54,449 nt of DNA from an uncultured virus (IMG/VR IMGVR_UViG_3300021387_000053) (IMGVR_UViG_3300021387_000053), one strand, 5' to 3'. Positions 1,565 through 53,609 are shown, counted from the stretch's first letter. Notes: a model not told the origin generated them from the letters alone. Numbers and translations are program-made.

Positions 1565-1900
1565 TTATATCGTTTCCCTCATCTTTGCACCGCATCCTGG
1601 GCAGTGATCGAACTCCAGTTCTTTCTCAAAGTTCTTTCCGTGCCATCCACATTTACTGCACTCGTAATGTCCGTGGAATTCAGGGGGCATCATCCCTTCC
1701 ATCTTTACCCAACAGGCTTTCTTAATCCCAAGGATTTCATCCGTCATATCACCTTCAACAACAAATTCAGTGTCGGGATTAGTGACATAAATATTGGTAT
1801 TGTCATATTGCGGGTTATAGAAAAAGTACAAGATTTGATCCGTATTAATCTACGTAGGAGTACTCTGATTCCTCTCTTTAACCTGAATAAACCTAGGCAT
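1565..1900 (-). CDS. hypothetical protein with C-terminal Zn ribbon; one in-frame TAG (1850-1852)
   Basis: ATG at 1900 overlaps the upstream TAA. Reads MPRFIQVKERNQSTPT*INTDQILYFF...CSKCG...CPGCGAKM. Confidence 0.75.
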
Positions 1901-4900
1901 TATTTGTCCACCTTCTTTACAATGTCTGCTATTTCATTAAGTGCGGTTCTCTGTGACCGAATAATATTTACTGCCCGGTCAACAGTAAGCATTCTTCGTT
2001 CCGCTTCCTTATTTCTATCTTTGGCATAAATGTCGAAAAAATAATCAGCGATTCCTTCAAGCTCTGCGATTGTCTTACTAACATCAGTCATCGTGTTCTT
2101 CACCCGGTTTCTTAGTCGTAAGATATTCAACACTAATTGAATCGATAGGAAATTTATGATTGACTGCAAAGTGTGAAACAGCACCGCAGTCCTTGCAGAA
2201 TAAGTCACATGGTCGAAATCAGAACCAGAGTGTGAAACTCCACGCTTCATTCGTCCATTACACCAGAAGCATTGTATATCCAGAGGAATATAAGTTTTAC
2301 TCATACTACTTCACCGCCCGTCCCGCTCATCAATCAGCAATCTTCCGCTGCAAATGTACGGCTTGATTTCACTGCATCGCATACAATACAATTTACAATA
2401 TCCATATCCGTGGCTCATTCCAATTGCGTGATAATTCTTCGGCGTGTAATAATCGCTCCATTTTCTACGCTCGTAACATTTGCATTTCTCGCAATAGCTG
2501 ACTTTCATTCCCATTTCACCGCCTGCCCACATACGCAACAGTACTTCTGATAATCAAGCTGTATATTCAGCCCAGGCTTATAATTCAGAAGATACTGTTT
2601 ACAGCTACCGCAGTAGTATTCTGTCCATCCATCCATATCCAGTCTTGTTATCGGCTGAAGAGGTATGTATCTGTTCAGCAAAGAGACAGTCTCTGATAAA
2701 AGTTCCATTGTTTCTACTGATCCACGAAGCTCTTGCAATCCACTTATAACTTCTTTAACATCGCTCATACGACTTCGCCTTTCAACTTTGCTTTCTTGTA
2801 CAATCTATCTCTCAGCGTCATGTACTCGTGGTCAGTAAGATCAAAACCTTTCCACAGAGTGGTTAACATATCCATCTTCTCGTCGTAGGTAAGTCTTTCT
2901 TCTGGCGGCTCTTCAAGGAATTCCAGAATATCCTCTAACAGATGACCGATACATCTGCCTTCCTTATAAGTACCAGTCTTTTTCGCATTCTCTTCTGAGT
3001 ACGGGCATGAGGAACAATCGCCTTTCAAGTCAGCCTTTATTCCGTATATAATCGTTTCTCTATCAGTCATTCCAAGTCACCGCCTGTCCACATTGATCGC
3101 AATACTTTTGCTTCTCATAGAAAAAACATTTATGACACTTTGGACACCTGTAAAGACGGTCGATTTCGTTCATCACTTCTACTTCCGGCTCAACCGCTTC
3201 CTGCTCTTTCAGCAGTTCCATCGCGCTTCTCTTTAGAACGTCGAGGCAATCATCCATTCCATTATATGGGCAAGAAATGCAACTCACTCTGCCGCCGCAA
3301 CATTCGAGACCCTTCAAAACCTTCTGCTTGTCAGCCATCCTGCTTCTCCTTCCCACGAGCGCAGTACCAATCCGCATCGTGCCATACCCAAACCAAGAAT
3401 CCGTCATCGCCTTTGCAGTATCTACAATGGTTACCGTCGATTGTCATTGTTGCGTATTTGCATTCTTTGCAGTGCACGATCTCTGGCTGTTGCTTAATCA
3501 AATTAATAGCTTCCTTAATCGCTATCCCGTCATCGAGACTCATAACGAACGGCTCTTCGCCAACCGTATGTACGGCGTGTCTTGATATCTGTTCAAGCCT
3601 ACGGATAATCTCAGCTTTATCCATCCTGGGCTTTCCTTTCTCCGCTTCCGCAGAACCAATTGGGATCAACTTGTATCGGGATAATCCAACGAGCTTTCTC
3701 CATCAGTACAGCACAACAGTTCTCGTCGTTCTCTCCGTCAAAGAGATGCTTGCAATCTTTACAATGTACGATCTCAGGCTGTTTCTTCAGCAACTCCAAT
3801 GCGTCTCTGCACAGATCGTCGTTGCATTCTTCATCTTCGTAATACGAGCAGTTCTCACATTTCGATGGCGGGTATAAGCAAATCTCAAGACTGTTTATCA
3901 CATCTTCTTTACAGCGCATCTCACTCAACCTCTGATCATTTTCGTAGTGTCAGGTAAATGATCGTCACGGTATGCCTTGCGATGTATCCCAACAATCCAG
4001 TACCGTCTCATGTGACTTACCGATCCATTTGTCGATATAATCACACGCTTCACCTTTTGTAGTCCCGGAGAACAGGGGAAGGGGATACTCTGAAAACTCC
4101 CGCATATCATTAATGAGTTGCTGTTGTTTCTCAGTTATCGGATCATCACGCCAGTTTCTCATCGATCTTCTTCTCTTTCTCAAGGATCAGTTCTCTGAAC
4201 CAACGATAGACTGGACAGCCCTCGTCAGTTGGTTGGCAGTTGTAACATGCAGCGGTCTTCCCCGGACATCCGTCCTTAAGCCAGCACATCTCACTCATCT
4301 CCTCAATAAACGTAGGCGTATACTTCCTGAGCGCATCTGCCAAGCGGTTTCCTACTGAACCAACATCCTAAAACTTCTTCGTTGTCTTCGTTATAGGCGA
4401 ATCCACAATAGAACCAACCAGTTATCTTTCTAGCTTTTTCAAGCGGAAGCTTTTGCTTTTCGACGAACAACTTATCAGCTTCGATCTCACTGAACTTTGA
4501 CTTGGATACGATAAAGACGTTATCTTCTCCATTAGCTACACCGTAAACAAATTCATACTCAGTTGAACTCATCCCAATCAATCTCCTGACCACAATTGCT
4601 GCAGAACTTTTCATATCCCATACCTACACCTACTACCTTGCCGTTGATCACATAGCCTACGTGGTTGCCACACTTTGGACAGCGGCATCTGTAGTAGGAC
4701 AACCCGTATCCTTCGATCTGTACCAGATTAGGCTTTACTGGTTTCAGAGAATCCAGATACTCAATCATGTCGATTACGATTTGTCCGCTTATTTTATAGT
4801 CCGGGTTGACTTTAGCGTCGGATTCGTAACACGTAAGATTATTCCTGAGTTGTCTCTTATCCATCTTCGCTCCATCTTTTCTATCTGATGCTTAGTAAGA

Positions 4901-5100
4901 TATTTTTTACTTTGTATCATGTCGTATACACATTTCTTCCCAGCTTGGAATCCGTTCTCATATCCGATCCTATATCTTCGTTCGTACTCTTCTTTGTAAG
5001 CTTCTTCTTGCTTATCAAAGCTACGACTCCAACCCCAGAGATAACCAAGAGCAAGGGAAGTAAACACTCCAAGGCAAATCAGTCCATATATCCAGCCCAT
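1900..5100 (-). other. array of small paralogous Zn-ribbon / Cys-rich phage proteins
   Basis: Recurring modules KQQPEIVHCKECK / KKQPEIVHCKDCK, YRCPKC...KYCxxCGQ and CxxCPY in the ORFs at 2505, 2765, 3063, 3331, 3617 and 4559. Confidence 0.65.
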
Positions 5101-5101
5101 C

Positions 5102-5455
5102 TCAGAACACCCCGTTTACATGCGGATAAATCCTGTATGCGCCCTTCAACATTTTCGCTCCACAGTTTGGGCAGAACTTACTGCCCGACCACCGCATAAT
5201 ATTTTCAGGAGTAATATCTTCCCCGGTCGGCAGCCCATCGTTTCGACTACGGCAGACTGAACAAATCCACCCTGGAATACCCCAATCCATTCCGTCTGGA
5301 TCAAGAATCCATGTTCCTTCCTTCCGATCATAAAGTGTAACGGTCGGAGCGTCTGCGATAAGACTCGTCAGCTATTCGACAAATCTGGAATTGCTTTCTG
5401 TATTTGTCAGACAGAGTACATCCGCCATCAATTTGTCAGCATCAATTAATCTCAT
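5102..5455 (-). CDS. MRLIDAD-type phage Zn-ribbon protein; one in-frame TAG (5372-5374)
   Basis: Reads MRLIDADKLM...FVE*LTSLIADAPTV...GTWI...CSVC...FCPNCGAKM. The start overlaps the upstream stop (ATGA). Confidence 0.8.
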
Positions 5456-11686: not shown

Positions 11687-12658
11687 TTAATCCTGTCCAA
11701 ACAGGATGTCCCTGATGTCCTGATCATCAATAGCAAATGGGAACGCAGCCGCTTTAGGATGACCGCCACCGCCGTACCTCTTGGCAAACTCTCCAAGATT
11801 AGGGCAATTCTCTCCACCACGGAGATGAGCCTTACCATGTTCGAAATCCAAGACCATTGCGAAGTCCGCATCAGGATGCGTCTCAACCAACTTGTTCCCG
11901 ACCTGAGAGAAAAGTTTAGAAGCGGTAGCAACAACCACGGAATAGTAGTTGTTGACGAAGATGCTACTTGACTGAGCAACCCGCTGATCGATATATTCCT
12001 TAACCCGCTGATCGTAACTGTAGGTAATACCCCAAAGCTCATCAGACAGAACAAAGTGCGGACTGCAAATCCTCATTCCATACGCATCAGTGTTAACAAT
12101 CTGACCGATAGCATAATTCACAAACTCTTCATATCCATACAGGGCAGCGAGATAGTTAAGCTGTTTCGAAAGGCAGAGCTTATTCTGGTCGAACCGCCAT
12201 GTATCGTAGAGACACACCGCATTCACGAACTCATCCAGAGCGTCCAGACACTGATGGAAATATCTGTCGTAGACAAGGGATGTACCGCAGACTTCAGGAT
12301 GGGTATTCACATACGCCCAGGGATACTTCTTGCTCATCCACTCAGCTGTCTTGTGATGGTCAAGGAGATGGATCGTTGTCGTGAAGTAGTGGGCAAGGCA
12401 GTAGTCATCCAGTTTCTTGGCGGTCTCTTCGTCGAGACTGAGATCGGTAATTATGATTTCCCTGTGAGTCGGCTTGGTTACCCCGACTTCATCGCTCATC
12501 ACGAGCAGATCAATAAAGTCGGAAACCTTCTTATTAATATTGTCGTAGTCGCAATAGGCAACAGAGAGGGAAGTATTGTAGGTCTGAGCAGCATGCAGAT
12601 GCATCAGCACGGAACATCCCAAGCCATCAAGGTCTGTGTGGGTAAAGAGGTTAATCAT
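11687..12658 (-). CDS. DHH/DHHA1 phosphoesterase (NrnA/oligoribonuclease-like)
   Basis: HTDLDG, ITDL, LDHH and GGGGHPKAA motifs; start at MINLFTH. Confidence 0.88.
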   Translation of the reverse strand: MINLFTHTDLDGLGCSVLMHLHAAQTYNTSLSVAYCDYDNINKKVSDFIDLLVMSDEVGVTKPTHREIIITDLSLDEETAKKLDDYCLAHYFTTTIHLLDHHKTAEWMSKKYPWAYVNTHPEVCGTSLVYDRYFHQCLDALDEFVNAVCLYDTWRFDQNKLCLSKQLNYLAALYGYEEFVNYAIGQIVNTDAYGMRICSPHFVLSDELWGITYSYDQRVKEYIDQRVAQSSSIFVNNYYSVVVATASKLFSQVGNKLVETHPDADFAMVLDFEHGKAHLRGGENCPNLGEFAKRYGGGGHPKAAAFPFAIDDQDIRDILFGQD

Positions 12659-12860
12659 CCGTTCGTTCAAGATCGTCAACTCCTGTTTCAAATTCCTGTC
12701 CCTACCAGTACCAGATGCAAGGCCCTGTGTACCATTCGGGCTTGCGTTCTTTGAACTTGCATCCATCGCAGGACTTCTGTACTGAACACTACCATTCCAT
12801 AAAGATCACCGGGTCGACCGTATCGAGCGTCAGTCGCTTGAACGCTTCCATGTTCGTCAT
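12651..12860 (-). CDS. small Cys-rich phage protein; two in-frame TAG (12789-12791, 12702-12704)
   Basis: RBS AAAGGGG. Reads MTNMEAFKRL...FMEW*CSVQKSCDGCKF...CIWYW*GQEF; the TAA overlaps the DHH start. Confidence 0.75.
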
Positions 12861-12969: not shown

Positions 12970-13518
12970 TTAAATTTTTTCTAGGTATCCCTGTTGGATC
13001 AGCCAAGCAATCCCCACGGCAACAGCATCGGACTCATCGTCGGTCTTATACTGCTGTACTCCTACGTACCGCTCAACACAACGAGCCACCTCATCCTTGT
13101 CTGCTTTATGGTTACCAGTCACTGTCTTCTTGATGGATACCGGGGCGATCTCGTCGAAGGTTGCCTGTTTATAACTGTATGCGTAAAGATCTGCAATCCC
13201 AGCTACTTTAGCCAGAGCTATCGTTTCATTCGGAGTTCTGTAGAACCCACGCTCTCTAACCAGTACCATTCCTTCTGCGGACTTGAGATAGCTTTTGATC
13301 TCCTAGGCTATCTCAGCCAACATCTGTCCGTGTGCTTTCCTCGCTCCATGATTATCTACATTGGATTTGCGGAGTAGCTTTACCTCTTTTGTTTTCTTAT
13401 TAAATTCAAGCTACGCAAACCCTGGGCATCTCAGGGACTAATCCGCACAGAAAAGCAGGATAGTCGGAGACTCATTCTCATATGCGGATACTTGTCCTGT
13501 TGTCTATTCCATATCCAT
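12970..13518 (-). CDS. ruvC: RuvC-like Holliday junction resolvase; four in-frame TAG (13504, 13438, 13411, 13303)
   Basis: Read-through restores the N-terminal catalytic motif LFCAD*SLRCPGFA*LEF. Also VRERGF, IKKTVTGNHKADKDEV and DESDAVAVG. Confidence 0.88.
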
Positions 13519-13519
13519 T

Positions 13520-13855
13520 TTATAGACCAACTTTCTCAGGACGGGTATCATAAGCAAACATAAGTCTTACGATAGCATGGGCAAGATGTTCGTCACTTCT
13601 GTCTCCTGCGAGATATGCATAGATGTGGGCAATTGCATGGTTGAGATGGGATTCGTAGGGAATCTTTGTATAGTTCCTACTTTCTAAAGTCTCACCGTAC
13701 TTATCTGCTCCCTGTCTGGCAACCTCGGCAGCCGCCAAAAGAGCAGAAGGCGGGAGCAATTCGAATGCATACGGTGAAGCAGACTGCTTGCCGCCCTGTT
13801 CATTTTCTACGACGGGAGCGTCGGGCATTACGCCCTAAAGAATATTATCGTTCAT
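13520..13855 (-). CDS. dATP/dGTP diphosphohydrolase-like (DUF5664-type) protein; one in-frame TAG near the N-terminus (13835-13837)
   Basis: GADKYG...NY, HLNHAIAHI and HLAHAIVRLMF motifs; AAAGGAG RBS upstream of ATG 13855. Confidence 0.7.
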
Positions 13856-14025: not shown

Positions 14026-14277
14026 TTAACATGTAATCTTAGTAGAGTGAGTTTGCAAATCTGGGTTGAGCGTAATCTTATCGGAGTCTACTGTAATGTT
14101 GGTTACAGTCTCCCCACAAGTAGGACTTACGTAAGGATATGTAGGATAGGTTATAGCCCATACCTCATTCTTTGCTTTACGATATCCCCTGTCATACGCA
14201 TCATTCTACATCTTTTCAAGCTCTTCCTTGGTAATATCTACCTTACCGTCCTTCAATGTAATAACAACAACATTCAT
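14026..14277 (-). CDS. hypothetical protein; one in-frame TAG (14206-14208)
   Basis: RBS GAGGTG. Reads MNVVVITLKDGKVDITKEELEKM*NDAYDRGY... and fills an otherwise empty gap. Confidence 0.75.
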
Positions 14278-14282
14278 TCTTC

Positions 14283-14474
14283 TCACCTCATGTCATACTT
14301 ACTTTCTTTCTGCGGATATTTGTCCTGCGGATGTTTGTCCCGGAATTTATGCTTCCTGTTCATTTCGCACCACTTACAGCTTCCGTGATTCCTGCAAGTC
14401 TTGTCAAAAGCCTTACTGCCATAGTACTGCTTACGATGTTCCTTGCCATATTTGATAGCTTTATCAAGACTCAT
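14283..14474 (-). CDS. small basic hypothetical phage protein
   Basis: MSLDKAIKYGKEHRK...CRNHGSCKWC. Confidence 0.6.
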   Translation of the reverse strand: MSLDKAIKYGKEHRKQYYGSKAFDKTCRNHGSCKWCEMNRKHKFRDKHPQDKYPQKESKYDMR

Positions 14475-28997: not shown

Positions 28998-29009
28998 ATA
29001 AATCTCTCC

Positions 29010-38557: not shown

Positions 38558-38801
38558 TTTCCTTTCTGCTCGTATATGTCCGTATCGCCCAGACAATTTG
38601 AAACTAATCAGAAGACGAAGTCCGTATAGACTTCCGTATTGCCCTTGATCAGCCGGCTGTAGCTGATGTCAGAGAACTTTCCGCACTCATACTTCTTAGC
38701 GGTGCGGTCATATTCGCCACGAACGAAGACCTGGCTCTCTTTGGGTTCAGAGATGGGCTTGAGTGTAAAGAACTCACCATTTTTCAGCTGTTTAACAGTC
38801 A

Positions 38802-39182: not shown

Positions 39183-39498
39183 GACGTTCTCCTTTCTTAG
39201 AATTTTGCAGACACCAGACGAACAAGTTCATCAAGTGCCGTCAGGTATGAATCGCCATCGACGTGAACGGAGTACAAAAGATGTCCGCTGTCCTCGTATA
39301 CAAGAAAGATTTCTCTGTCCTGCCAGATGAAAAGTCTTCTGCGATCCCATTCAGAAAACTTTGCAACATCTTCTTCCGTCCCATGAAAATAGGAGACGTG
39401 AACATCCTTCCGTCTCCCATATTTCTTGATCATTGCGGTTACATCGGCGGCGATTTCTTTCAACTTCGCATCCCGTTCAATAATGCAATCCTGCGTCA

Positions 39499-40386
39499 TT
39501 ACTTATCACCCCCTTTCTCGTCTTCTTCTGCACGGTCACCAAGAATAAGACGGACAGCTTTGTCCGCCTTTCCTGCAGCCCAGACGATCATTTTCTTGTC
39601 TTCCTGAAGTGCCTTGCTCCACCCCTGAATGTAGGCGGCGTTATTGCGGAAACTGCTTTCCGTTTCCAGTCCGCAGAAATTAACCAGAGCAGAAGCTCCA
39701 AGCTCCGCAACCAGTTCTTCTTTGGAGTAGACTTCGTTTCCGAATCTGGAGTTCTCATCCAGTCGATCCAGTCTGGATTTATGTCCCGTCGAATGGGTCA
39801 ACTCATGGAAAGCAGTGCTGTAATACTCAGCAGTCTCAGAAAACTGCCCGATCTCAGGAACTACAACCTTGTCCTGTACACGATTGTAGTAGGCTTCCAT
39901 AGACAGCTTCTGTTCGAAGGTTACGCCGGAACGCTTGACATAATCTTCGATAATCTCGTCAGCTTCCGCATTCAGTTCAGCCACACTCATAGTTTCCTGA
40001 CTTCCTGTGAATCTAGGCTTAATACCTTCGCACTGATCGACATGGAAAACGTTGTAGTACTTCAGCATCGGGATCATCTTAACGATTTCCTCGCCCGTTT
40101 CCTTGTCGGTCTGGGTTGCCTTAATGAAGTTCCAGTAAACCACGATGCTGGATTTCTCACCCTTGCGAACCCGTCCCTTTTCCTTCTGAATCTGCTTGAA
40201 GGTAAGGTATTCTCCGGGTCTGAGTCCTAGGTATAACTGGTTCAGAAGGCTATATCTCTTTCCAGTCACATGGGAGATTGCGAAACGTGCATCTCCACCC
40301 TTCCAAGGCTTCTTCCACGGGATAATTCCCTTATCCATTGCGGAAAGAATGCGATCAGTTACCATTGCATAAACATCAATACTCAT
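39499..40386 (-). CDS. ardC: ArdC-like ssDNA-binding antirestriction protein with zincin domain
   Basis: IPWKKPW, YSLLNQ, YNVFHVDQ, HELTH, YSKEELVAE and AAYIQGW motifs. Confidence 0.88.
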   Translation of the reverse strand: MSIDVYAMVTDRILSAMDKGIIPWKKPWKGGDARFAISHVTGKRYSLLNQLYLGLRPGEYLTFKQIQKEKGRVRKGEKSSIVVYWNFIKATQTDKETGEEIVKMIPMLKYYNVFHVDQCEGIKPRFTGSQETMSVAELNAEADEIIEDYVKRSGVTFEQKLSMEAYYNRVQDKVVVPEIGQFSETAEYYSTAFHELTHSTGHKSRLDRLDENSRFGNEVYSKEELVAELGASALVNFCGLETESSFRNNAAYIQGWSKALQEDKKMIVWAAGKADKAVRLILGDRAEEDEKGGDK

Positions 40387-40388
40387 AC

Positions 40389-42427
40389 TTATGCTCCTTT
40401 CTTTGCCTTACGGCTTATCTTTGCTTCGATACCTTCCAGAAGCTTTTCTCCCGGCGTATCTACATACATGGAAAGATTTCCGTCAAGAAAAAAGTCGCTG
40501 ATTTCATCAACGACTTCCTGTCTTCTTGCAAACATATCATACTGATCGATCAGAATGCGGTAATGATGCATTCCTGCACCATCCCCGTACAAACGAGCCG
40601 TATTGTACTTGCTCACGGCTTCACGGCGAAGCTTCACCAAGTCCTCTGGACAATTATGTGCGATCAGGTACTTTTTTGCAGTCATGTAATCCCTTGCGGC
40701 CTGCTCTACAATTGCTACTGCTAGATCTGCGAACATTATTCCTCACCCCCTTCCGTATACATGGGCAACTTGCTCATGTCAAACTCATAGACGGGATAGA
40801 ACTCGTCTCCGTCTCTGACCATATCAGGGGTTTCCTTCCCGATACCGAGTTTCTCGATAATCGGTACTGCGTAGTTATAAATTGCGGAACAATTTTCCGG
40901 GTAGTCTTTATTTCCGAAGAGATCGGCTGTCAGGTAGTACTGAAGTCCGTTCTCATTGAATGTGATTACGGTAATGTGCAGCTGTCCGAGTACATTTCTG
41001 TTCTTGCTGACGAACAGATACTGTTCGCCAATCTTTGTCATCTTTTCCAGATCAATCTTCATGCCATTCATAAAGATCGGTGTTCCTTTGACCTGATTCC
41101 AGTTTGCATGGCAAACTTTGCACTCTGTATTCCAGTACAGAGCGGAGCAATCCTTTGCTATTTCGATTGCTCTATCCTTCTTGTCGGTGATCTGGAAGGG
41201 TCTTCTACCAACTGACACAATATACTGCTTTGCCATCTTACTTTTCCTCCTTAATATCGCTGAAACTACAGATGTAATCGTTGTCGCACATCTCTTCTTC
41301 CAGTTCCACATTGTGATCATCCACATAATGGTCTGCTTCCTCACGAGCTTCATCCTCGTCATCCGCTTCTACTGTGAACGTCGTGGATTCGGTTCTCGTA
41401 TAGGTAACCTTCCACTTTTTCTTGCCTTTACGGAAGGAATAAAGGCGAGGATATTCCTTCTCACACTTGTCCATCAGTTCCTGAGTGACCGTTTCAAGAT
41501 CATCAGGATTTGCGGTCACAATTTTTTCCTGTTCCGCAGGAGTCAGGGACTGGAAACTGCCGTTGTCCTGTTTGTAGGCAAGGATGGTTGTCCAACGCCA
41601 GTCCTGCCCAAAGTCAAAGTAGGTAACTCCGACTTCAAATCTTGTACCGTTCAGAGAACGGGCAGTCATGATACGGGCAACACGAGCAAGATTCTGATAT
41701 TCTTGTTCATCCGCTCCATAGATTCGAATAACATCCATCTTAGTTAACCCCCTTGTCGTAGCAATAGATATAGAAGTTGTAGTCTCCCTTTCTGGGGATG
41801 CAACGAAGACAGTAGATGAAGTGCTCAGATTCCGAACGGAATCCGTATTCATCTCTCTCAAGGAGAAGTCCCGTTCTGGATTCCTTATACATGGTATAGA
41901 AGTCACTGAGTAAACCTTCACGAAGTTCGTCCACGACTTCGTTAAACTCCTCACGGAATTCTTGAGTCTTGAGGATCATTTCGTGATCAAACCAGCTCGT
42001 CCAGAACTCTTTCCCGCTTCTCCCGAAGTCTCCACGGAGATGTCCAATACAACGACGCTCCGAATCCTGCTTGTCGTTGCCGGAATACAGCCAATCGCTT
42101 TTCCCAGATTCAATAGGCAACCAATTCATATTCGTTTCTCCTTTCTTATTTCAGATCAAGATATCCAAGGTAGTGGATATCAAGGATCTCGTCATCATAG
42201 AGGTTTTCCGTATTCTCGTCATCGAAGTCCAGAAGAACGACATCGTTGTACTTCCACTCATCGACTCCACTGAGTTCCCAGAGATTCCCGTTTGCGTATA
42301 CGAGGAAGAAATCTTCCTCATATACGATTCCGCACACTCTGCCGTAAACCTGATAGGTTTCCGCACAAGATACTCCTACAGACAGGATCAGGATTAGCGC
42401 AGCGACCAAGGCAACAAACTTCTTCAT
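40389..42427 (-). other. five hypothetical early genes (one, 42146-42427, with a signal-peptide-like N-terminus)
   Basis: Coupled ORFs with RBSs. Confidence 0.6.
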
Positions 42428-42987
42428 ACTCGTACTCTTTTCTTGTTCTTCTTGCTCTTTCTGAATGGCTTATCAGAGACTGCGAATCCGTTAGGAATCC
42501 GCATCGCATAGAGTCCAGCGGATTTGAAAAGCGGAAGGTAATCCTTCCGCTTCATATTCCGCTGATAACAGTCACGCTTAGTGACACGACCAATTCCCGT
42601 CCGATCTCCCTCATAGATTGTTACGAGTGCAGTATGAGATGCCGCTCTTTCTATTCCCATGCGAATCGCTTCAAACATCGCTTCGTCATCATCGATCACA
42701 TTCACAACGTTGGATAGCGTTGCAATACTGATAGGGAAGAGAGCCATAGCAAGACGAGCAACGCCCTGTTCGTCTTCGTCCTGATTGTAGGGGTCATATC
42801 CAATGTAGCCCCATCCAAGAGACTTCACTTTTTCACGGATATGGGCGGTCTCTTTCCCGCATCCGATATCGAGAATGTAATGGTCTGGCTTTTCTGCCTT
42901 ACCAATTAGGGATTCCAGATGAGAGAAGAGGAAGGGGAGTTTTCCCGTGTTTACCGATGTGTCCTTACTCGTGTAACGCTGTGCCAT
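42424..42987 (-). CDS. class I SAM-dependent methyltransferase-like protein
   Basis: ILDIGCGK, GYDPY, LSNVVNVI and YQRN motifs. Confidence 0.75.
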   Translation of the reverse strand: MAQRYTSKDTSVNTGKLPFLFSHLESLIGKAEKPDHYILDIGCGKETAHIREKVKSLGWGYIGYDPYNQDEDEQGVARLAMALFPISIATLSNVVNVIDDDEAMFEAIRMGIERAASHTALVTIYEGDRTGIGRVTKRDCYQRNMKRKDYLPLFKSAGLYAMRIPNGFAVSDKPFRKSKKNKKRVRV

Positions 42988-43005
42988 AAGTTTTGATCTC
43001 CTTTC

Positions 43006-43494
43006 TTATTCAAGCCCGAACCTTTTAAGTTGGGCTTTCCATCTCTGAATACCGTTGCCGTCCGCAGTTTCCGTCAGTACTGACAGCCACTTCTGACTCC
43101 AATTAAAAGAGGCTTCAACATCGAAGCCTTTATAGTCATCTTCCACCCACAACCATTTATGATGCCAAATGTACTCTGAGTGTCCTTTCCGAGTCTTTCC
43201 GTCGGGGAAAACCGAAACATAGTCCCCGACAACGGGTTCACGGGCAGTGTCAAAGTCTGGCCCTTCCTGAAAGCTGACCGTCTGAGTATTGGTGTCATAT
43301 TTCAGACAGTTATACTGAAAGTCTGGATACTTCTCATACAGGACAGCTTCCGCATTTATCAGGATTTCCATAGGGATAATCTTGTGTGCATAATTCTTGT
43401 GTGCATATACACAAAAGCACATAACTTTGCCGACTCCGTACTTTGAACGGGTAATACGATTTCCCTTACGGGTTACAACAAATCTTTTTGCCAT
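43006..43494 (-). CDS. hypothetical protein resembling the non-catalytic domain of phosphorothioation-associated putative methyltransferases
   Basis: PDFDTAREP...IWHHKWLWV; adjacent to the MTase gene. Confidence 0.45.
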   Translation of the reverse strand: MAKRFVVTRKGNRITRSKYGVGKVMCFCVYAHKNYAHKIIPMEILINAEAVLYEKYPDFQYNCLKYDTNTQTVSFQEGPDFDTAREPVVGDYVSVFPDGKTRKGHSEYIWHHKWLWVEDDYKGFDVEASFNWSQKWLSVLTETADGNGIQRWKAQLKRFGLE

Positions 43495-43862
43495 ACTTAC
43501 TCCTCCTCGTCATCGTCATACTCACAAGGGGCTTTATCCCACTCTCCTAGGGATTCAAAATGACAGCAAGGATATCTGTCATCTTCCGTCCTGTAACAAT
43601 AAGGACAGTCCTTACAAGTAAGTGCCATAACTCAATCTCCCTTCGTGTATTCCATCAACTTATTTGCCACCGCTTCGACAGCTTCCTGATCTGCCCATTC
43701 ACTGAGCAAATCGTCGAATTTTTCCGCATCCCGTTCAAAATATGCAGCGATTGCCTGACGAGTTACGGAGCGAGGGATTCCGAAGTTAGCCCCGCATGTC
43801 AGGACTTTCTCTGTCTCATTTGCAGTGAGCCAGTTACAAGTTGCCATACTGATTCTCCTTTC

Positions 43863-44483
43863 TTAAATCAGCGGTAACCACTGGGAAGCCATGGCTTCAG
43901 CGATACCGCTAAAAGTTTTACTGCGCTGTTTGGGAGTCTTATGCATTGCGACCCAACTCCCGATTGGGTCAACGACATTTGTCGGGACAAGTTCCGGCAA
44001 ACCTCTCAACCAAAGGAGAGTCCGTTTCGTATACGGATTTCCGTATTCGAAGGGCTGAACTACCTGAGATTCCTTCGGTAGTTCAAAGATCCTCAGCGGA
44101 GTAGGATTCTCTATGCAGAGATGAGAAGCGGAGCAATTGAAAAAGGACATGAAGAACTTCCGACCTTCAAGTCCTTTCTGATAGCGTTCCATATTCAATT
44201 GCCCATGCGGATAGAGATGCGTAGCTCCGCATCTCGTCAAGTATGTGCACGGGGGATGGGCGATTATCAGATCCCATTTCTCAACACGATGCACTTTGCC
44301 GTCCTGAGTGCGGAAAAGTCCGCCATTCAGAAGGGGAAGAACGTCCCCTTTGATGTGCCATTCTGGATGACTTCCGCTACAGTTCTGGATGTCTGCACTA
44401 TAAGCTTCCGCACCAAGTTTGCGGAACGCTTTGCAGACAGCCTGAGATTCTTCACAAGCCACAAGAATTTTCTTTGTTGCCAT
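43863..44483 (-). CDS. short-type DNA cytosine methyltransferase-like protein
   Basis: ILVACEESQ, AHPPCTYL, IENP and RSKTFSGIAEAMASQW motifs. Confidence 0.8.
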   Translation of the reverse strand: MATKKILVACEESQAVCKAFRKLGAEAYSADIQNCSGSHPEWHIKGDVLPLLNGGLFRTQDGKVHRVEKWDLIIAHPPCTYLTRCGATHLYPHGQLNMERYQKGLEGRKFFMSFFNCSASHLCIENPTPLRIFELPKESQVVQPFEYGNPYTKRTLLWLRGLPELVPTNVVDPIGSWVAMHKTPKQRSKTFSGIAEAMASQWLPLI

Positions 44484-44803
44484 ACCGATTCTCCTTTACA
44501 CATATTTGAGACCCTTACGAGTTCTCAATTCAAAAGGCGATCGTTTCTGATTTGATCGCCTTCTGTACCGAAAACTCATCTCACTTGAGCAGGAAATTCC
44601 AGAACGAGAGAGGGTTGGGATGGTTGGAGCGATGCCAGACATCACCATCCACAACGCCAGATGTCTTTGCTGCCTCGATGAAAGATCTCTCGTTGCCTTC
44701 ACCTTCACAAAGAGTTCCATCTTCTTTCATGAGAATCCATTTAAATTCAGGTCGTGCCATAATAAAACCTCCGTATAGATTTATTTGTGTCCGTGGACAC
44801 ACT

Positions 44804-44830
44804 AAAAGGGACAGGAGTTCTGTCCCCTTT
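44804..44830. terminator. bidirectional terminator-like hairpin
   Basis: AAAAGGGACAG-GAGTT-CTGTCCCCTTT. Confidence 0.55.
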
Positions 44831-44851
44831 ATGTGTATTCACCAACTTGTG

Positions 44852-45730
44852 TTACTTCTTGAAGATCGCCACGATCTTCTTGAAGACTGTGAGCAGACGG
44901 CTTGCGTCCTTCTTGTTGCTGATGCGGAGAAGTTCGCAGACATTACTGCCGTCAGGCCAACCGCCAAGTTCCGGCGGAAGGTAGCATTTCCAACCGCACT
45001 GAGCGCACATCTTCCCGTTACACTCGACACCACCCTCATCGAGTGCTTTCTGGAGAGATTCCTCGTCAGGGTAGACAGTGAACACAAGGTCTGCCCACTT
45101 GGAACGCTTTGCAGGCTTGCCGATAATAGGGGAACTCTGGACATAACGGCAGTTCTTGGGCTTGCCGATGTGGTCGAATCCCTTTCCGATATCTCCGTAA
45201 TTCTTGCCCCAATATCCCGAATGGAATCTGGGATTTGCGTAGATCAGATTGATCATGTTTTCTGCATGAATCTGATTCTCCGTTTCTCCGGCGGAATTAA
45301 TCCGCAGGAAGTTCTCCAGAAATCCCTTGAGCTTTTTCGTGATCGGTCTGCGCTTCCAGTCCTCAACGGAGAATGGAACAACAGACAGGATAAAGAGGTT
45401 CAGAGTGTGAGCATTCATCACGGAAGGCATACGGTTTTCCTGACGCATGTCGTAGCAATACCCACAAATGTGGGCAGGATTGTTTTCTGCAGCCTTCTGC
45501 ATTTTTTTGCAGAATTCGCAGTTGTGTGCAGACGAATCACAGGAATAAGCTCCGGCAATCTTGTGGATATCGTGATAATTAATCACGACGATTTTCAGAA
45601 GGATTGTCTTTTCCTCATCGGAGAGAGTGCCGTTCTTCTGGAACTTGGTGATGAGCTTGGTTGCAGACGCTTTCCGCTCAGGGAAAGTCTTGATAGGGTA
45701 CAGAGTCTTCAGATTGTTAGTGATAGCCAT
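44852..45730 (-). CDS. GP88-like Cys-rich (Fe-S/radical-SAM-related) phage protein
   Basis: CEFC, ICGYCY, LRINSAGE and C-terminal CxxxCxxCxxxC. Confidence 0.55.
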   Translation of the reverse strand: MAITNNLKTLYPIKTFPERKASATKLITKFQKNGTLSDEEKTILLKIVVINYHDIHKIAGAYSCDSSAHNCEFCKKMQKAAENNPAHICGYCYDMRQENRMPSVMNAHTLNLFILSVVPFSVEDWKRRPITKKLKGFLENFLRINSAGETENQIHAENMINLIYANPRFHSGYWGKNYGDIGKGFDHIGKPKNCRYVQSSPIIGKPAKRSKWADLVFTVYPDEESLQKALDEGGVECNGKMCAQCGWKCYLPPELGGWPDGSNVCELLRISNKKDASRLLTVFKKIVAIFKK

Positions 45731-46635
45731 AACGATTCTCCTTTCAAATTAAAAACGATCTGGCTTATTTCCAGACCATTCCGCACTAAACATAAACTGA
45801 CTTTGACTTATTTACTTTGAAAAAATCATGAAGAAAAACAGGGTTTCCAGACCCAACATAAACAGTGCCAACTTTACGAAGTCGGCGAAGGTGTCTTGAT
45901 TTTCCCGACCGCTTTTGTTGCGGTATCTGCGGTGTCTTTCGATGCTCATGCCGTCACCTTCCTCACGGCACAGAGCAGGATATGTCCCCATGAGACATAA
46001 CCCACAAGGACTCTGTTCTCAATGCAGAACTTCAGGGTCACATCCCAGTGAGCGCAGATATAGAATCTGCGCCGGAGTTCGGACAGGATATCCGTAGAGA
46101 GATAATCCCGACGAACGGAGATTTCTTCCTGTTCCGTCCAGTGTCCTTCGTTATTGAGGACACCTATTCTGTAAGACTCCTTGCCCATACAGTTCACCTC
46201 TTTCCCTTCGCCATACGGACGGTATCAGGGGAGTATTTCCAGATACCGCCGTCATAGTCTGCGAGAGCCTTTGCAGACTGTTCGATGGATACGTTGTGAC
46301 GGTTCGCATAGTCTCTGATCTGTTCCGCTTGCAGTCTGTACATCTCCAGACAGTGAGATTTGAAACGGTACAGATTCGCCATACTGCCGACATACTGATC
46401 ATACTGATTGGAATACCGATAAGCGTCTGAGCCTTTGATGTAACAGTAGTTTCCCCATTCATCAAAGACTTTCAGGACAGGATTCCCGTTCTCATCCGTT
46501 GCCTTTACCGTGAAGGTAATAAGGCAAGCGTTGAACATGATCAGCTGACCACGTTCGTTTTCCGTTAGGTCGAACTTCTTGTAATAGCGTGCCATTGAAA
46601 TTCTCCTTTCAATTTCTGCTTAATTTTCCGCATAC

Positions 46636-46665
46636 AAAAAAGAGCCGGACACATTCCGACTCTTT
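46636..46665 (-). terminator. intrinsic terminator
   Basis: AGAGTCGGA/TCCGGCTCT stem followed by TTTTT on the minus strand. Confidence 0.6.
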
Positions 46666-47780
46666 ACAGGGTTATCAGGTTCAGATTGGGAATAATCTTG
46701 CTATCATCTTATCTTTCCCATCTTTGTCGAAAGATACAGAAATAGTTGCTTCGACGGCATTTTCTGGATGTGATGCAAGAACTTTATCCTGCAACTCATT
46801 CATGTCTTTTTCGATTGTGAGCGGACTTCTGATTGTTTCCAGTATGTTCCCGTGGTTGTCTACGATTTCGCACTCCAGATATTGTGCGTATGAAGTGCCA
46901 AAGTACTTCGATAAGGATTTGTATAAGAATTTCCCGTGTTCATCTTCTGGCGGTTTCTTGCCAATACGGATATCTTCGCATGTGGCTCTGATTTCCGCAA
47001 GAGTATATTTTTCCAACAGCACCCATTAGTCACCTCCCTCCTGGAGACAGTATAACACACTTAGCAAGGCTCGTTTACCCAGTCGAGCCAAGACTGGTAC
47101 TGCCCGATAAAGTTGTCCCATCCCTTGCCAACCATAGGAGAGTCTTCATCTTCGAGGTCGGTACGGGGAGTGAGGACAACAAAAAACGCCTTCTCACCAA
47201 AGCTTTCGAAGGCGTCGAAGGAAAGAGAATACTGCTCCTGAACCTGTTCAAGGCTCATAGCAGAGGGGATAGCATGGAGCATTGTAGTTACAAGGGAAAG
47301 GGGAGAAGAATTGTAGCATTCGAATTTGATAGTGGTCATACGATACACCTCTTTCATTTTACTTGTTAAGGTTACGAGCACACTCGCAAACGAACTGACG
47401 ATAAGCGTCATGGAAAGAATCCCAATTCAAACCGATGGACTCTTCAGGGATACGATACTGTACCACTACTTGGAAACGGCAGTGAGATTCACCAATCCAT
47501 TCGACACGGATATTCGTTGAATGGGTCATCTGTTCCATGGACTTGAAACCGTAAGTGTTAGCGATACGTTCATAGATTGCCTGTTCACCTGAATAGTCTT
47601 CGATGAACAGAGCAGAAGGAACAGAATACCCATTGACAGAGATGATACGGGAATGTCCAGAGACTTCACCAAGGGACAGAATTTCAGTCATAGCTTTATA
47701 CCTCTTTCATTTTTTCATTAGCGGACATTGTCCACTTTATCGTATAGCCGTTGTGACAGCTACACGAGAAAATAGACAAA

Positions 47781-47803
47781 GGGGACGGAGCGAGTCCGTC
47801 CCC
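47781..47803 (-). terminator. terminator-like hairpin
   Basis: Perfect 9-bp stem GGGGACGGA/TCCGTCCCC downstream of 47820-48302. Confidence 0.55.
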
Positions 47804-48339
47804 GAAGGAAGGGGAGAGATTAGGCAACCTGCTTCATGGAAGCGATAGCCTGCTTGAGTTCTTCCATGGTGCAACCGAGAGACTCAAGCAGTTTCTGTTC
47901 TGCAGACTTCTTGCCAGACTTTGCAGGAGCGTCTTTGATTTCGACCTGAGTGTAGTTGGTCATTCCGCAACCGAGATACTGGGCAGGATCAGCGATAGTC
48001 TTCTTGAACTCAGAGAGAGAGATGCACTTGAACTGACCTTCGGACTTCTTGAAGGAAGCGACTTTGCAGAGCATGATCTGCACAAAACGCTCAGAGTCGA
48101 CCTGTTCGCCGTCTTCGGCGACGAACATATTTTCCAGACAGTTCTTGAGAGCGGTTTTATGTTCGGCGTATTCTTCACCAGACACGAGAGCGTTCATAAA
48201 GTTCATGAAGCAGTTGTAGGTAGAGAGAGCATAACGACGACCTTCGTTACCAGAGATGATGAGATTGCCCGCCTGATTGACCTTTGCATACTTATTGAAC
48301 ATAGTAAATACCTCCTAGGCTAAATTTTTACGGTTTCCT

Positions 48340-52074: not shown

Positions 52075-52368
52075 ATGATGACGATTGTCGATATGAAGAA
52101 GCTTGAGACTGAACTGAAAGATGCTCAGTTAAAATATGAGAATGCGCTCCGCAGGAAGTCCGGCGTAGCCCAGGCGAAGGAGACACTGAAGAATCTCCTG
52201 CTGAATAACCTGAACAATATTGTCGGATGCCTTGGCAGACTTGCGAAATCAGAGGAAGAGGTCGCATGTTTGCAAGCTGCTCTGGATGACGCTGACGCAG
52301 AACTCGACAGGCTGAAGAAGTCTCCCAAGACGAAAAAGGGAGACGGTGCTGATGGCAAGAAAGAATGA
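52075..52368 (+). CDS. coiled-coil hypothetical protein
   Basis: Heptad-rich ORF. Confidence 0.65.
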   Translation: MMTIVDMKKLETELKDAQLKYENALRRKSGVAQAKETLKNLLLNNLNNIVGCLGRLAKSEEEVACLQAALDDADAELDRLKKSPKTKKGDGADGKKE

Positions 52369-52762
52369 CACGATTGTTGACAACTGGGGTTATGTACCGC
52401 TGAGTGAACCCCGAATCGTTGCAGGACTTATTATCCAGCGGAGCGAGTAGGATCGCCAGTATGACTAGTTGAGTTCCCCTTTTGGGATTATCGAATCTGC
52501 GGGAACTTCAATTATGGATACGGAAAGAATGTGTACGTTTATTGATCTGGATAACTAGATTGAGACGTGCGGACTTTCACAGTCAGAACGGCAGACAGTA
52601 GACATGTAGATGGACGGGTATGGGATGAGTGATGTGGCGGAAAGATATCAGATCGCAGTCGCTACTGTTTCCTCTTATTAGGACAGAGCGGTTGCTAAGA
52701 TCGTAGAAGCCAATAACAAACGTTGGGAAGAAGTATACAGCCCAGGTTCTCCCTGTGCCTAA
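52352..52762 (+). CDS. sigma-70 region-4-like HTH transcription regulator; five in-frame TAG (52448, 52466, 52556, 52607, 52679)
   Basis: Absent from the ORF track. Read-through gives 136 aa: FIDLDN*IETCGLSQSERQTVDM*MDGYGMSDVAERYQIAVATVSSY*DRAVAKI. Confidence 0.8.
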
Positions 52763-52807
52763 AAAAGTGACAACTTATTTGATCATAATAGAGGGAGGGA
52801 GAAACTA

Positions 52808-53515
52808 ATGGCTAAAGGCTATCACATTCATCTTCCTGACGGGAAGGTTCAAAGAATAACAATCCACGACGAGGAAGAGCGAAAGAGAATCTGTCAGGAA
52901 CTCCTCGAAGAATGGGGAGATTACTGTAACAGAAACTGGATTAATGAGGACGGGAGTCCGTATAGTCCGGGAGCTAAGGTCAAAACATTTCTCGACTCCA
53001 TTGCTATGGTTATGCTTCCAGAAGCAGCTTCAGAGGGCATAGAGACAGACTACAAGGATAAGATGCGGGGTAGCAGAGAAATTCCTATGTCATCGTGTCC
53101 CACCTATGTTGAAGATGTTGTGTACGGAAGAGTCAGTCCAAGCGGAAACGCTCAGGTTGCAGCCGATACCGACACATTCAGAAACACAATAGGGGCAGAA
53201 CCAGTCAAGACGAAGAAGAAGCCAAAGCAAAAGAAGGTTGACCGCTTCACTAAGTTCGAGATCTGGAAGAACGAGAACAGTGTCGCAGACACCCACAGGT
53301 GTTACGTCAATACAGATGGAGAGTTCAGTTTCCACGGGGTTAAGTATTCTCTCGTACTGGAAAAGCTTCCGCAGTATCAGGTTAAGGTTCTCCCGAACGG
53401 AGACGAGCTTTACGACATGGACTATGTTCTGATCGGAATCAGGAAGGACGGTACTGTGTGTTATGCGGACTGTACCTTCCATGATATCAGCCCGGAGTTT
53501 GTAAAGAGAGTTTAA
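52808..53515 (+). CDS. hypothetical protein
   Basis: RBS GGGAGG; 235-aa ORF. Confidence 0.75.
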   Translation: MAKGYHIHLPDGKVQRITIHDEEERKRICQELLEEWGDYCNRNWINEDGSPYSPGAKVKTFLDSIAMVMLPEAASEGIETDYKDKMRGSREIPMSSCPTYVEDVVYGRVSPSGNAQVAADTDTFRNTIGAEPVKTKKKPKQKKVDRFTKFEIWKNENSVADTHRCYVNTDGEFSFHGVKYSLVLEKLPQYQVKVLPNGDELYDMDYVLIGIRKDGTVCYADCTFHDISPEFVKRV

Positions 53516-53534
53516 GACCCTTACTCTGGGTCTA

Positions 53535-53609
53535 GCGGGTGTAGCAGAACGGCCTATGCGGAACACTCTAAATGTTTGTCTTTTGTGGGTTCAAATCCCA
53601 CCACCCGTA
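53535..53609 (+). tRNA. amber suppressor tRNA, anticodon CUA, with tRNA-Leu-like body
   Basis: Acceptor GCGGGTG/CACCCGT with discriminator A; D arm GCAG-AACGGCCT-ATGC (A15, G13-A22); anticodon arm GAACA-CTCTAAA-TGTTT (CTA at 53568-53570); T arm GTGGG-TTCAAAT-CCCAC. Confidence 0.92.

Follow-up and report, generated by a model that had tools for sequence, protein, structure and literature searches.

The window, a 54,449-nt stretch of DNA from an uncultured virus (IMG/VR IMGVR_UViG_3300021387_000053), carries genes with TAG codons inside their reading frames, which raises the question of whether this codon is still a stop in these genes and, if not, which amino acid it specifies. The window very probably represents roughly half of the ~119-kb genome of a tailed phage in which TAG is a rare leucine codon and whose hosts are Clostridia of the ruminant gut. 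Terminase, portal, and tail genes were found among the proteins of the phage genome, and relatives of the phage occur within Clostridia assemblies. One complete relative (G002), which was assembled independently, shows 95% nucleotide identity to the window and carries ~126 TAGs, namely, 99 in 47 mostly structural genes and 27 in the tape-measure open reading frame (ORF). The share of TAG is low, at 2-4% of the Leu codons.

The initial annotation listed 20 in-frame TAGs in 10 genes of the window. All 20 positions were found to be TAG on the coding strand, with the frame open through them; the plus strand reads CTA at 15 of these sites, in minus-strand genes, and TAG at the other 5. A count by region gave exactly the same number, with 15 in minus-strand genes at positions 300-21338 and 5 in the sigma-factor-like gene (Table 1). 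The omission from that list of the naive read-through TAGs at 4624, 17141, 15222, 31616, 35760, and 41369 was right: these are located upstream of better starts or within an intron-like insert. It had also been noted that none of roughly 80 real-looking genes checked ends in TAG, and this agrees with the 91 calls made by a codon-usage-based gene caller under code 11, which end in TAA (46), TGA (44), and TAG (1); the single TAG-terminated call, at 5974-6219 on the plus strand, lies antisense to the gene row and is a doubtful ORF.

Table 1. Coordinates of the features discussed in the text, with the TAG codons that they contain (positions in the window)
Feature	Coordinates	Strand	Details
Small zinc-ribbon ORF	1565..1900	-	TAG 1850; G002 codon TGG (Trp)
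Zinc-ribbon ORF	5102..5455	-	TAG 5372, kept in G002
Small Cys-rich ORF	12651..12860	-	TAGs 12789, 12702; both kept in G002
RuvC-like Holliday junction resolvase	12970..13557	-	TAGs aa 18, 40, 49, 85 (13504, 13438, 13411, 13303); Pfam RuvC 2.9e-11
dATP/dGTP diphosphohydrolase-like protein	13520..13855	-	TAG aa 7 (13835); Pfam dGTP_diPhyd_N 4.9e-18
Small ORF	14026..14286	-	TAG 14206, kept in G002
HNH homing endonuclease	17200..17919	-	TAG aa 116 (17572); PHROG 374 HNH endonuclease 2.1e-31
ThyX thymidylate synthase	20251..20928	-	TAGs aa 11, 23, 52 (20896, 20860, 20773); Pfam Thy1 4.4e-39
RemA-like protein	20925..21338	-	TAG aa 24 (21267); Pfam RemA-like 1.1e-8
TAG-free block, 46 early genes	21354..48302	-	0 TAG vs 617 Leu codons
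Sigma-factor-like gene (region-4/GerE-type HTH)	52346..52762	+	TAGs 52448, 52466, 52556, 52607, 52679; PHROG 3512 'sigma factor' 5.6e-8
tRNA, anticodon CUA (reads UAG)	53535..53610	+	ARAGORN; Rfam tRNA 54.8 bits vs cut-off 29

Under code 11, the ORFs break at the TAG sites, as expected if TAG is still a stop and the genes are broken, split, subject only to occasional read-through, or misassembled. However, Pfam and PHROGs matches extend across the TAGs in RuvC, ThyX, the RemA-like protein, dGTP_diPhyd_N, the HNH homing endonuclease, and the sigma-factor-like protein, and both the TAGs and the frames downstream of them are conserved in independent assemblies. Because 23 of the 24 comparable codons are kept in G002 (the odd one is TGG there), sequencing error can be ruled out as the source of the TAGs. 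Close relatives contributed 68 further conserved TAG pairs, and in a more distant phage (L035), with a RuvC only 53% identical to that of the window, two of the RuvC TAG columns are likewise TAG. If TAG were a stop, the G002 genes for the portal (8 TAGs) and large terminase (3), those of the major-capsid region, and the tape-measure ORF would all be broken. The alignments between relatives contain TAA or TGA inside just once compared to 117 TAGs, and a dedicated, invariant tRNA(CUA) is present. The probability that TAG remains a stop codon in this phage thus appears negligible.

If TAG is a sense codon, its meaning can be sought in the residues that homologs carry at the TAG columns. We used a Codetta-like likelihood of each amino acid on homolog columns. 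Even with code-15 mistranslations left in, leucine ranked first, with a lead of 16 to 37 nats over the next amino acid, on the 12 columns of the window (L -21.3, Q -37.5, I -42.1) as well as on the full set of 20 (L -33.4, I -70.3, Q -72.2). The TAG columns of the family alignments are mostly Leu, with Gln the majority residue in none. In ThyX (68 homologs), the columns at aa 23 and 52 contain L44/M8 of 57 and L55/I3 of 60 non-gap residues, respectively. In RuvC (150 representatives), L is found at aa 40 in 68 of the 97 non-gap sequences. The single TAG of the HNH endonuclease corresponds to the Leu codons TTA, TTG, and TTG in three relatives; this gene resides within a 1048-bp insert that splits nrdD and is missing from G002 and from contigs of other samples. 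The TAG column of the RemA-like protein corresponds to an Ile in a beta-strand of the solved RemA structure 7bme. The five TAG columns of the sigma-factor-like protein, which also matches Pfam GerE below the cut-off (1.5e-4), are occupied by V/V, L/K, L/L, L/L, and L/F in two distant homologs. For the small Cys-rich ORF, homologs besides that in G002 were not found, and the small ORF at 14026 has no family match in Pfam or PHROGs. The initial annotation cautioned that a few sites fit Gln equally well, and several of these indeed say little: RuvC aa 85 falls in a variable polar column (a D/E/K/Q mix), RuvC aa 18 is covered by only 28 of the 150 homologs (K20/R4), and aa 7 of the diphosphohydrolase-like protein is K, T, or L in relatives.

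The portal protein of G002 (8 TAGs) was aligned with 120 homologs. Four of its TAG columns contain L in 93, 96, 103, and 117 homologs (the last at X305), and another contains T79/L27; two are not Leu-like (aa 32, mixed; aa 60, D 50). Of the 17 columns in which Leu makes up at least 80%, TAG is found on 4; of the 13 Gln-dominant columns, it is found on none, and in 11 of these the phage's own residue is Q. The same method applied to control codons returned Q for CAG (0.47), L for TTG (0.69), and I for ATA (0.50); TAG returned L (0.49), and none of its columns has Q as the majority residue. In a reverse test, in-frame TAGs of relatives were compared to the aligned G002 residues (n = 117): L 60, I 17, V 8, M 8, F 6, S 5, D 3, E 3, N 3, Q 2, K 1, and T 1. 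In the forward test, 45 TAG columns of G002 were compared to the pooled relatives; L accounts for 138 of the 247 residues and is the majority residue in 19 of the 45 columns, whereas Q is absent. Among close relatives, TAG is exchanged with TTG twice; TAG/TTT, TAG/GAA, and TGG/TAG switches were each seen once. The original proposal that TAG is read as leucine rather than glutamine is supported: the column statistics, reverse test, control codons, and TAG/TTG swaps all favor Leu, so that this meaning, derived here from conservation alone, is very probable.

Phage precedent points elsewhere, given that Gln is the only TAG reassignment that the available account of recoded phages reports (bioRxiv 10.1101/2021.08.26.457843). 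Under NCBI table 15, the Leu-like columns would be a coincidence or tolerated substitutions. Public protein sets give Q at these columns in close relatives, Q is present in 12 of 136 homologs at RuvC aa 85, and the switches between the window and G002, such as TAG/TGG at 1850, include one CAG/TAG (33365). In addition, the CUA anticodon can attract GlnRS in Escherichia coli. However, when the protein P0219 was compared to the nearly identical L094 DNA, all 6 Q-versus-stop mismatches were TAG codons. Therefore, the Q at TAG columns in the database is an artefact of code 15 translation. Glutamine also fits worse than leucine by 16 nats on the columns of the window and by 39 nats on all 20 columns, and it fails on the Gln-dominant portal columns and in the forward and reverse tests described above. 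The tRNA(CUA) itself has A73 and C2-G71, unlike the tRNA-Gln identity set, which in E. coli includes G73 and G2-C71. We regard the reading of TAG as glutamine as extremely unlikely.

A further possibility is that TAG specifies another hydrophobic residue (Ile, Val, or Met) or several residues, through charging of the tRNA by more than one synthetase. Some columns are compatible with Ile or Val, including ThyX aa 11 (I24/L13/V4 of 44 non-gap residues), RuvC aa 49 (V38/L21/I16 of 106), and portal aa 161 (I58/L57). Mixed charging would also be consistent with the body of the tRNA, which is not clearly that of one isotype. However, the same I/V admixture is seen at ordinary TTG and CTA columns, and Ile falls below Leu by 21 nats on the columns of the window and by 37 nats overall. 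The Ile, Val, and Met synthetases read the anticodon, and CUA does not suit them. This alternative, too, is very unlikely, and leucine remains the preferred meaning.

The tRNA(CUA) is identical in sequence in G002 and two other relatives. It is 76 nt long, with discriminator A73 as in bacterial tRNA-Leu, a G1-U72 wobble pair, a D-arm with a 3-bp stem, a G13/A22 mismatch and A14 A15, and a variable region of 7 nt without the long (type II) arm of bacterial tRNA-Leu. The length and layout of the D-arm are equal to those of a Clostridia tRNA-Leu(UAG). When the whole phage tRNA was scored against 49 tRNAs from Clostridia genomes, it came closest to tRNA-Gly (total score of 24 vs 18 for Leu); its 5' part alone is nearest to Leu, marginally (11 vs 9 for Gly). 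Related and other viral contigs encode CUA tRNAs of 84-86 nt with a long arm, which are plainly tRNA-Leu-like, scoring 31 for Leu versus 17 for the next isotype. ARAGORN labeled the tRNA 'tRNA-Pyl'; this label comes from the anticodon alone and was rejected, with no pylS or pylBCD family among the scanned proteins (52 + 23 + 28). Neither a release factor nor a synthetase gene was found in the same protein sets.

We infer that the compact tRNA is charged with leucine. In E. coli, the amber suppressor supP/Su6 is a tRNA-Leu with a CUA anticodon that inserts leucine at UAG, and LeuRS ignores the anticodon. Such laboratory suppressors are single-base mutants of a long-arm tRNA-Leu, whereas the phage tRNA is natural and compact. 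Charging of a short-loop tRNA-Leu by a bacterial LeuRS is on record: the work on Streptomyces coelicolor, as far as it is drawn on here, describes a type I (short variable loop) tRNA-Leu that is charged by the organism's own LeuRS, so that the long arm can be dispensable for leucylation (PMC6614811). That system differs from the present one in its sense anticodon (CAA), host clade, and dependence on features of that particular LeuRS, and it implies that a short-loop tRNA-Leu is not accepted by every LeuRS.

The distribution of TAG along the genome is highly uneven. The replication gene row begins with ~27 kb free of TAG, a block that encodes Pol III alpha, primase-helicase, SSB, integrase, RNA ligase, an anti-restriction protein, and a methyltransferase. 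Downstream of the polymerase, TAG occurs only sparsely (15 TAG vs 448 Leu codons at 300-21338; Fisher p = 2.7e-6 against the TAG-free block). Expressed as part of the Leu-type codons, this is 0/617 versus 15/463. In the late structural genes of G002, TAG is dense. Within genes, the mean relative position of TAG is 0.338 (n = 99, KS p = 5.6e-8), whereas ordinary Leu codons in these genes average 0.49. Each gene call begins at the first start codon, and the N-terminal bias could be inflated as a result, but the 45 homology-supported sites retain it (0.318, p = 3e-4).

Because TAG is absent early, dense late, and concentrated in the first third of genes, its most likely role, judged from codon distribution only, is that of a translational gate. 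Genes with TAG would yield full-length protein only after the phage tRNA appears. Leucine would be attached to the compact tRNA by the leucyl-tRNA synthetase of the host, an enzyme that does not read the anticodon, and the charged tRNA would then beat host release factor 1 at UAG. The sigma-factor-like gene, which contains five TAGs, heads the late gene row and precedes the tRNA by ~770 bp on the same strand; it may link late transcription to the code switch, although this is speculative.

Recoded gut phages with suppressor tRNAs, including crAss-like, Lak, Garnet, Topaz, Agate, and Jade phages, use code 15 (TAG to Gln) or code 4 (TGA to Trp), and, by the account consulted, these two changes are the only ones seen in phages whose code differs from that of the host (bioRxiv 10.1101/2021.08.26.457843). 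As that account describes them, these phages share with the present one in-frame TAGs in conserved genes, the disuse of TAG as a stop, a phage tRNA(CUA), the sparing of early genes and integrases with enrichment of the recoded codon in late genes, and standard-code gut bacteria as hosts. Unlike them, the phage described here has leucine as the amino acid, rare TAGs, a bias of TAG toward gene starts, and no release factor or synthetase gene among the scanned proteins. Leucine as the meaning of UAG is on record, in the sources available, for NCBI tables 16 and 22 (chlorophycean and Scenedesmus mitochondria), chytrid mitochondria, and phyllopharyngean ciliates (PMC11687900, PMC6551751, PMC6131824). 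The codon and its new meaning are the same, but those codes are cellular or organellar and involve a change of the whole translation system, whereas here the virus would impose the meaning on a host that keeps TAG as a stop. A search of open-access papers and bioRxiv retrieved no report of TAG = Leu in phages, consistent with the earlier suggestion that such a code is undescribed. The combined reading, namely, a Clostridia-phage clade with a code new for viruses (TAG = Leu, read by a compact, tRNA-Leu-like suppressor without a long arm) and a placement of TAG, toward the 5' ends of middle and late genes and five times in the sigma-factor-like gene, that would serve as a translational timer coupling late transcription and translation to the tRNA, we put forward tentatively, at slightly below an even chance.

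Annotation of stop-codon recoding in phages is at present confined to codes 15 and 4. If a group of rumen and gut phages reads TAG as leucine, gene callers that apply code 15 place glutamine at buried leucine positions; such mistranslation, of which one database protein is a direct example, impairs homology searches and structure prediction. The argument that GlnRS and TrpRS alone are easily hijacked, as put in bioRxiv 10.1101/2021.08.26.457843, would have to be widened to LeuRS, the classic anticodon-blind synthetase, and a natural compact UAG-leucine tRNA would be a new tool for tRNA identity studies and genetic-code engineering. Together, the sigma-like gene with its five TAGs and the bias of TAG toward the 5' ends of genes offer a testable model of a code switch that times the lytic program. 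On the combined reading put forward above, Clostridia phages with TAG = Leu are currently mistranslated as TAG = Gln in public protein databases, and 14 of the 120 portal-family homologs carry Q at conserved-Leu columns; therefore, the code may be widespread and overlooked.

The initial annotation had reported 20 in-frame TAG codons in 10 otherwise intact genes of the window. On the coding strand, each of these sites was found to read TAG in frame (a by-region count returned exactly 20), and family matches extend across them. The annotation's statement that none of the genes it had checked ends in TAG agrees with 90 of the 91 genes called under the standard bacterial code (code 11); the one exception is a doubtful antisense ORF. 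Base-calling errors were considered as a source of these codons. Among the comparable TAG codons, 23 of 24 are retained in G002, a viral relative of 119,416 bp (completeness rating 100%) with 90-97% nucleotide identity over most of the window. Site 1850, TAG in the window, is TGG in G002, and G002 has TAG where the window has CAG (33365) and TCA (43177), the TCA case possibly being a misalignment. We identified 68 additional conserved TAG pairs among further close relatives, and two of the RuvC TAG columns also carry TAG in a phage whose RuvC shares just 53% identity. Considering this retention in G002, in further relatives and in a distant RuvC, sequencing errors and pseudogenes are excluded on comparative grounds. 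The region is also covered by contigs from three DNA runs and an RNA library. None of the 40 differences listed (781 further differences lie beyond these) falls on a TAG codon, an excerpt too limited to serve as a test; the RNA library contigs indicate presence of the region and no more.

In G002, our own gene calls contain 99 TAGs across 47 genes, with 27 more in the tape-measure ORF. Essential late genes are among them, namely, those for the portal (8 TAGs), the terminase (3) and a 1,655-residue tail protein (10). The tape-measure ORF exceeds 3,784 codons and runs past the contig end, and its end repeats the start of a 1,106-residue ORF at the opposite contig end; hence, the G002 record has either a circular permutation or terminal redundancy, and the protein may be close to 4,800 residues long, its gene containing perhaps 30 TAGs. 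In the G002 C-5 methylase and endolysin genes, a TAG lies 1-3 codons ahead of the TAA stop and could be either a residual true stop with a back-up stop or a leucine codon.

To keep the searches blind to the answer, every TAG was translated as X. The resulting alignments support the earlier proposal that TAG reads as leucine, with Leu-dominant columns in ThyX, RuvC and the portal protein. Across 68 ThyX homologues, the column of residue X52 contains L 55, I 3, V 1 and Q 1; X23 contains L 44, M 8, I 2, Q 1, T 1 and Y 1; and X11 contains I 24, L 13, V 4, Q 2 and E 1. PDB alignments of ThyX were too distant to guide the first two TAG columns. For RuvC, aligned with the top 150 cluster representatives among 667 matches, X40 is dominated by leucine (L 68, F 8, I 6, P 5, S 4, Q 1), X49 has V 38, L 21, I 16 and K 10, X85 is variable and polar (D 30, E 14, K 12, Q 12, others), and X18 has K 20 and R 4, with only 28 sequences extending there. 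The G002 portal, aligned with 120 homologues, has six Leu-rich columns among its eight TAG columns (L 93; L 96; L 103; I 58/L 57; L 117; T 79/L 27), and the other two are variable; at the eight positions, the closest full-length relative that lacks TAG there (82% identity) has N, Y, L, L, L, L, L and L. The TAG column of the HNH endonuclease corresponds to Leu codons in three relatives, and that of the RemA-like protein to Ile in the solved RemA. Among four homologues of the sigma-like protein, the two distant ones have V/V, L/K, L/L, L/L and L/F at the five TAG columns, and the two close ones have Q there, or L once.

We computed likelihoods across the 20 amino acids from weighted column frequencies with pseudocounts. 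Leucine scored highest both for the 12 columns of the window (Leu -21.3, Gln -37.5, Ile -42.1) and for all 20 columns (Leu -33.4, Gln -72.2, Ile -70.3). The Leu figure is conservative because one outlier with a long N-terminal extension distorted the sequence weights. As a control, the same column method returned the correct residue for ordinary codons (Q 0.47 for CAG, L 0.69 for TTG, I 0.50 for ATA and I 0.45 for ATT); for TAG it gave L 0.49. In the portal alignment, TAG occupies 4 of 17 columns with at least 80% Leu and 0 of 13 Gln-dominant columns, at 11 of which the phage itself has Q. A forward test on 45 G002 TAG columns with pooled relatives gave L for 138 of 247 residues and Q for none, with an L majority in 19 columns. 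The reverse test, in which in-frame TAGs of relatives at 17 other loci were compared with G002 residues, yielded L 60, I 17, V 8, M 8, F 6, S 5, D 3, E 3, N 3, Q 2, K 1 and T 1, with a single TAA or TGA inside these alignments. Codon switches among close relatives comprised two cases of TAG/TTG and single cases of TAG/TTT, TAG/GAA and TGG/TAG. The coding-density comparison of codes 11, 15 (TAG to Gln) and 16 (TAG to Leu) proposed initially did not tell the codes apart in the window: greedy ORF tiling covered 92.5% of the window under code 11 and 95.5% with TAG as sense, and codes 15 and 16 yield identical ORFs, so that coding density does not distinguish Gln from Leu.

Glutamine does occur at exactly the TAG columns in the close database proteins P0001, P0219, P0339 and P0340. 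When P0219 was compared with the near-identical DNA of L094, a related locus, all six Q-versus-stop mismatches were TAG codons, and the other nine mismatches were ordinary substitutions. Because of these six mismatches, we conclude that the four proteins were translated under code 15, judging from the DNA in the case of P0219. At the 17 conserved-Leu columns of the portal family, L (1,856) is followed by Q (28), ahead of I, F, V and M, and the 28 Q come from 14 of the 120 homologues. The simplest reading of these protein sequences is that such homologues belong to further TAG=Leu phages translated as Gln.

The tRNA with anticodon CUA (54.8 bits) has A73, a G1-U72 wobble pair, a variable region of only 7 nt, and a D-arm of three pairs plus G13/A22 with A14 and A15, the loop length being that of tRNA-Leu(UAG) in a Clostridia genome. 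G002 and two further relatives carry an identical copy, with different neighbouring tRNA genes. Its acceptor stem is common to tRNA-Gly, and in a similarity test of weak power the 5' part scored Leu 11 versus Gly 9, with the total score nearest tRNA-Gly. Under tRNA identity rules, A73 and the CUA anticodon speak against glycine, making this identity unlikely. Long-arm CUA tRNAs of 84-86 nt are present in the related phage L045 (19 in-frame TAGs in the reverse test), two viral contigs with an identical gene and one further viral contig; the 84-nt L045 tRNA is clearly tRNA-Leu-like (score 31 versus 17 for the next isotype). The E. coli LeuRS tolerates a missing long arm. Charging of a short-loop tRNA-Leu by a bacterial LeuRS has been described in Streptomyces coelicolor (PMC6614811). 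The best phage-record matches of the window tRNA are annotated as tRNA-Leu and carry little weight, being 30-nt T-arm/acceptor matches or 74% identical. The window tRNA is thus compatible with leucine and no proof of it, so that the Leu assignment rests on the protein comparisons. A BLAST search of five Clostridia genomes with this tRNA returned a T-arm match only, and promoter and terminator scans around it gave counts within chance. Short-loop CUA tRNAs also occur in three viral contigs (L124, L137, L148); these are 76-79 nt long, and their D-arms are of the ordinary type I form. An unusual tRNA with anticodon UAU (88-89 nt; long variable arm, that is, a type II body; A73; G1-U72) lies near the CUA tRNA in G002, outside the window, and in L093 and L095. 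A second reassignment at ATA, prompted by this tRNA, was rejected: in three alignments, four of six ATA columns are Ile.

According to one preprint, no reassignments other than TAG to Gln and TGA to Trp were observed in phages whose code differs from that of the host (bioRxiv 10.1101/2021.08.26.457843). A 2024 paper on reassignment prediction refers to table 15 only, and an infant-gut study used codes 15 and 4. In open-access papers and bioRxiv, we found TAG/UAG to leucine for mitochondria and ciliates and no report for phages, in agreement with the initial suggestion that such a phage code is undescribed; a report in subscription journals or supplements, beyond this scope, is possible.

Coordinates of features in the window and in G002
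Feature	Sequence	Position	Strand
C-5 cytosine methylase, two overlapping ORFs	window	9871-11666	-
C-terminal part	window	9871-11004	-
N-terminal half	window	10965-11666	-
nrdD insert	window	17035-18082	-
Part compared with group I intron model	window	17053-17164	
46 genes without TAG	window	21354-48302	
Region between divergent gene blocks	window	48303-50297	
Sigma-like gene (five TAGs)	window	52346-52762	+
tRNA(CUA)	window	53535-53610	+
tRNA(UAU)	G002 (L007)	6864-6952	
C-5 methylase	G002 (L010)	13402-14691	
Endolysin	G002 (L010)	16639-17445	
Tape-measure ORF	G002 (L006)	2-11353	-
Tape-measure ORF, continued	G002 (L011)	16055-19375	

In the window (G+C 44.9%, no N), the minus strand holds a single long gene row that extends from about 48.3 kb to 0.3 kb, and the plus strand a short operon (50.3-53.5 kb) followed by the tRNA gene. 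Pfam and PHROGs matches identify replication and early genes (Pol III alpha, primase-helicase, SSB, RecA-like ATPase, PD-(D/E)XK nuclease, tyrosine integrase, RNA ligase, anti-restriction protein and methyltransferases) and genes of nucleotide metabolism and repair (NrdD and its activase, dUTPase, ThyX, RemA-like protein, RuvC, dATP/dGTP diphosphohydrolase-like protein and DHH phosphoesterase). The other half of the G002 genome encodes the large terminase, portal, capsid-region and tail proteins, an NlpC/P60-SH3 endolysin and the tape-measure protein. The roughly 2-kb region between the divergent blocks, with many TAGs in all frames and without a convincing ORF, may be a regulatory or origin region, and the apparent split of the C-5 cytosine methylase may be a frameshift or natural. 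The nrdD gene is split by a 1,048-bp insert carrying the HNH homing endonuclease. Part of this insert matches a group I intron model at 25.9 bits (E = 3.5e-4), short of the threshold of 50. The insert is present in one run and absent from G002 and other-sample contigs, which have 29 other letters at the junction; by this comparison, it is a polymorphic, mobile intron-like element. A nucleotide search of the phage collection with positions 12600-21400 returned short conserved patches only, indicating no cultured close relative. Metagenome relatives were viewed solely within 10 kb of the query gene. The assemblies that contain portal relatives are labelled Clostridia, Eubacteriales and Christensenellales-like and derive from the guts of sheep, goats and other sources; contigs of 269 and 300 kb carry two of these relatives. 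Window DNA is present in runs from 12 studies, all of them gut metagenomes of cattle or sheep. From these sources, a species of Clostridia living in the ruminant gut is the most likely host.

Of all Leu-type codons, TAG represents 2.2% in the window and 4.3% in G002, and its distribution is uneven. It is absent from 46 consecutive genes with 617 Leu codons, compared with 15 TAGs against 448 Leu codons downstream of the polymerase (Fisher p = 2.7e-6), and is dense in the late genes of G002. Within genes, the mean relative position of TAG is 0.338, with 62% in the first third (KS p = 5.6e-8), whereas in these genes ordinary Leu codons are spread uniformly (mean 0.49; Mann-Whitney p = 1.3e-7); the early bias is retained at the 45 homology-supported sites (mean 0.318, p = 3e-4). 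On the late-gene strand of G002, the plus-strand operon with the sigma-like gene is followed by tRNA(CUA), three more tRNAs, and the genes for packaging and structural proteins. The scanned proteins of the window and G002 included no release factor or aminoacyl-tRNA synthetase. The distribution of TAG agrees with a published proposal in which recoding acts as a gate on late translation (bioRxiv 10.1101/2021.08.26.457843). A tie between the sigma-like gene and such a gate is speculation. In these phages, the gate would operate with leucine, and placement of TAG near the 5' end of genes would make failed translation cheap.
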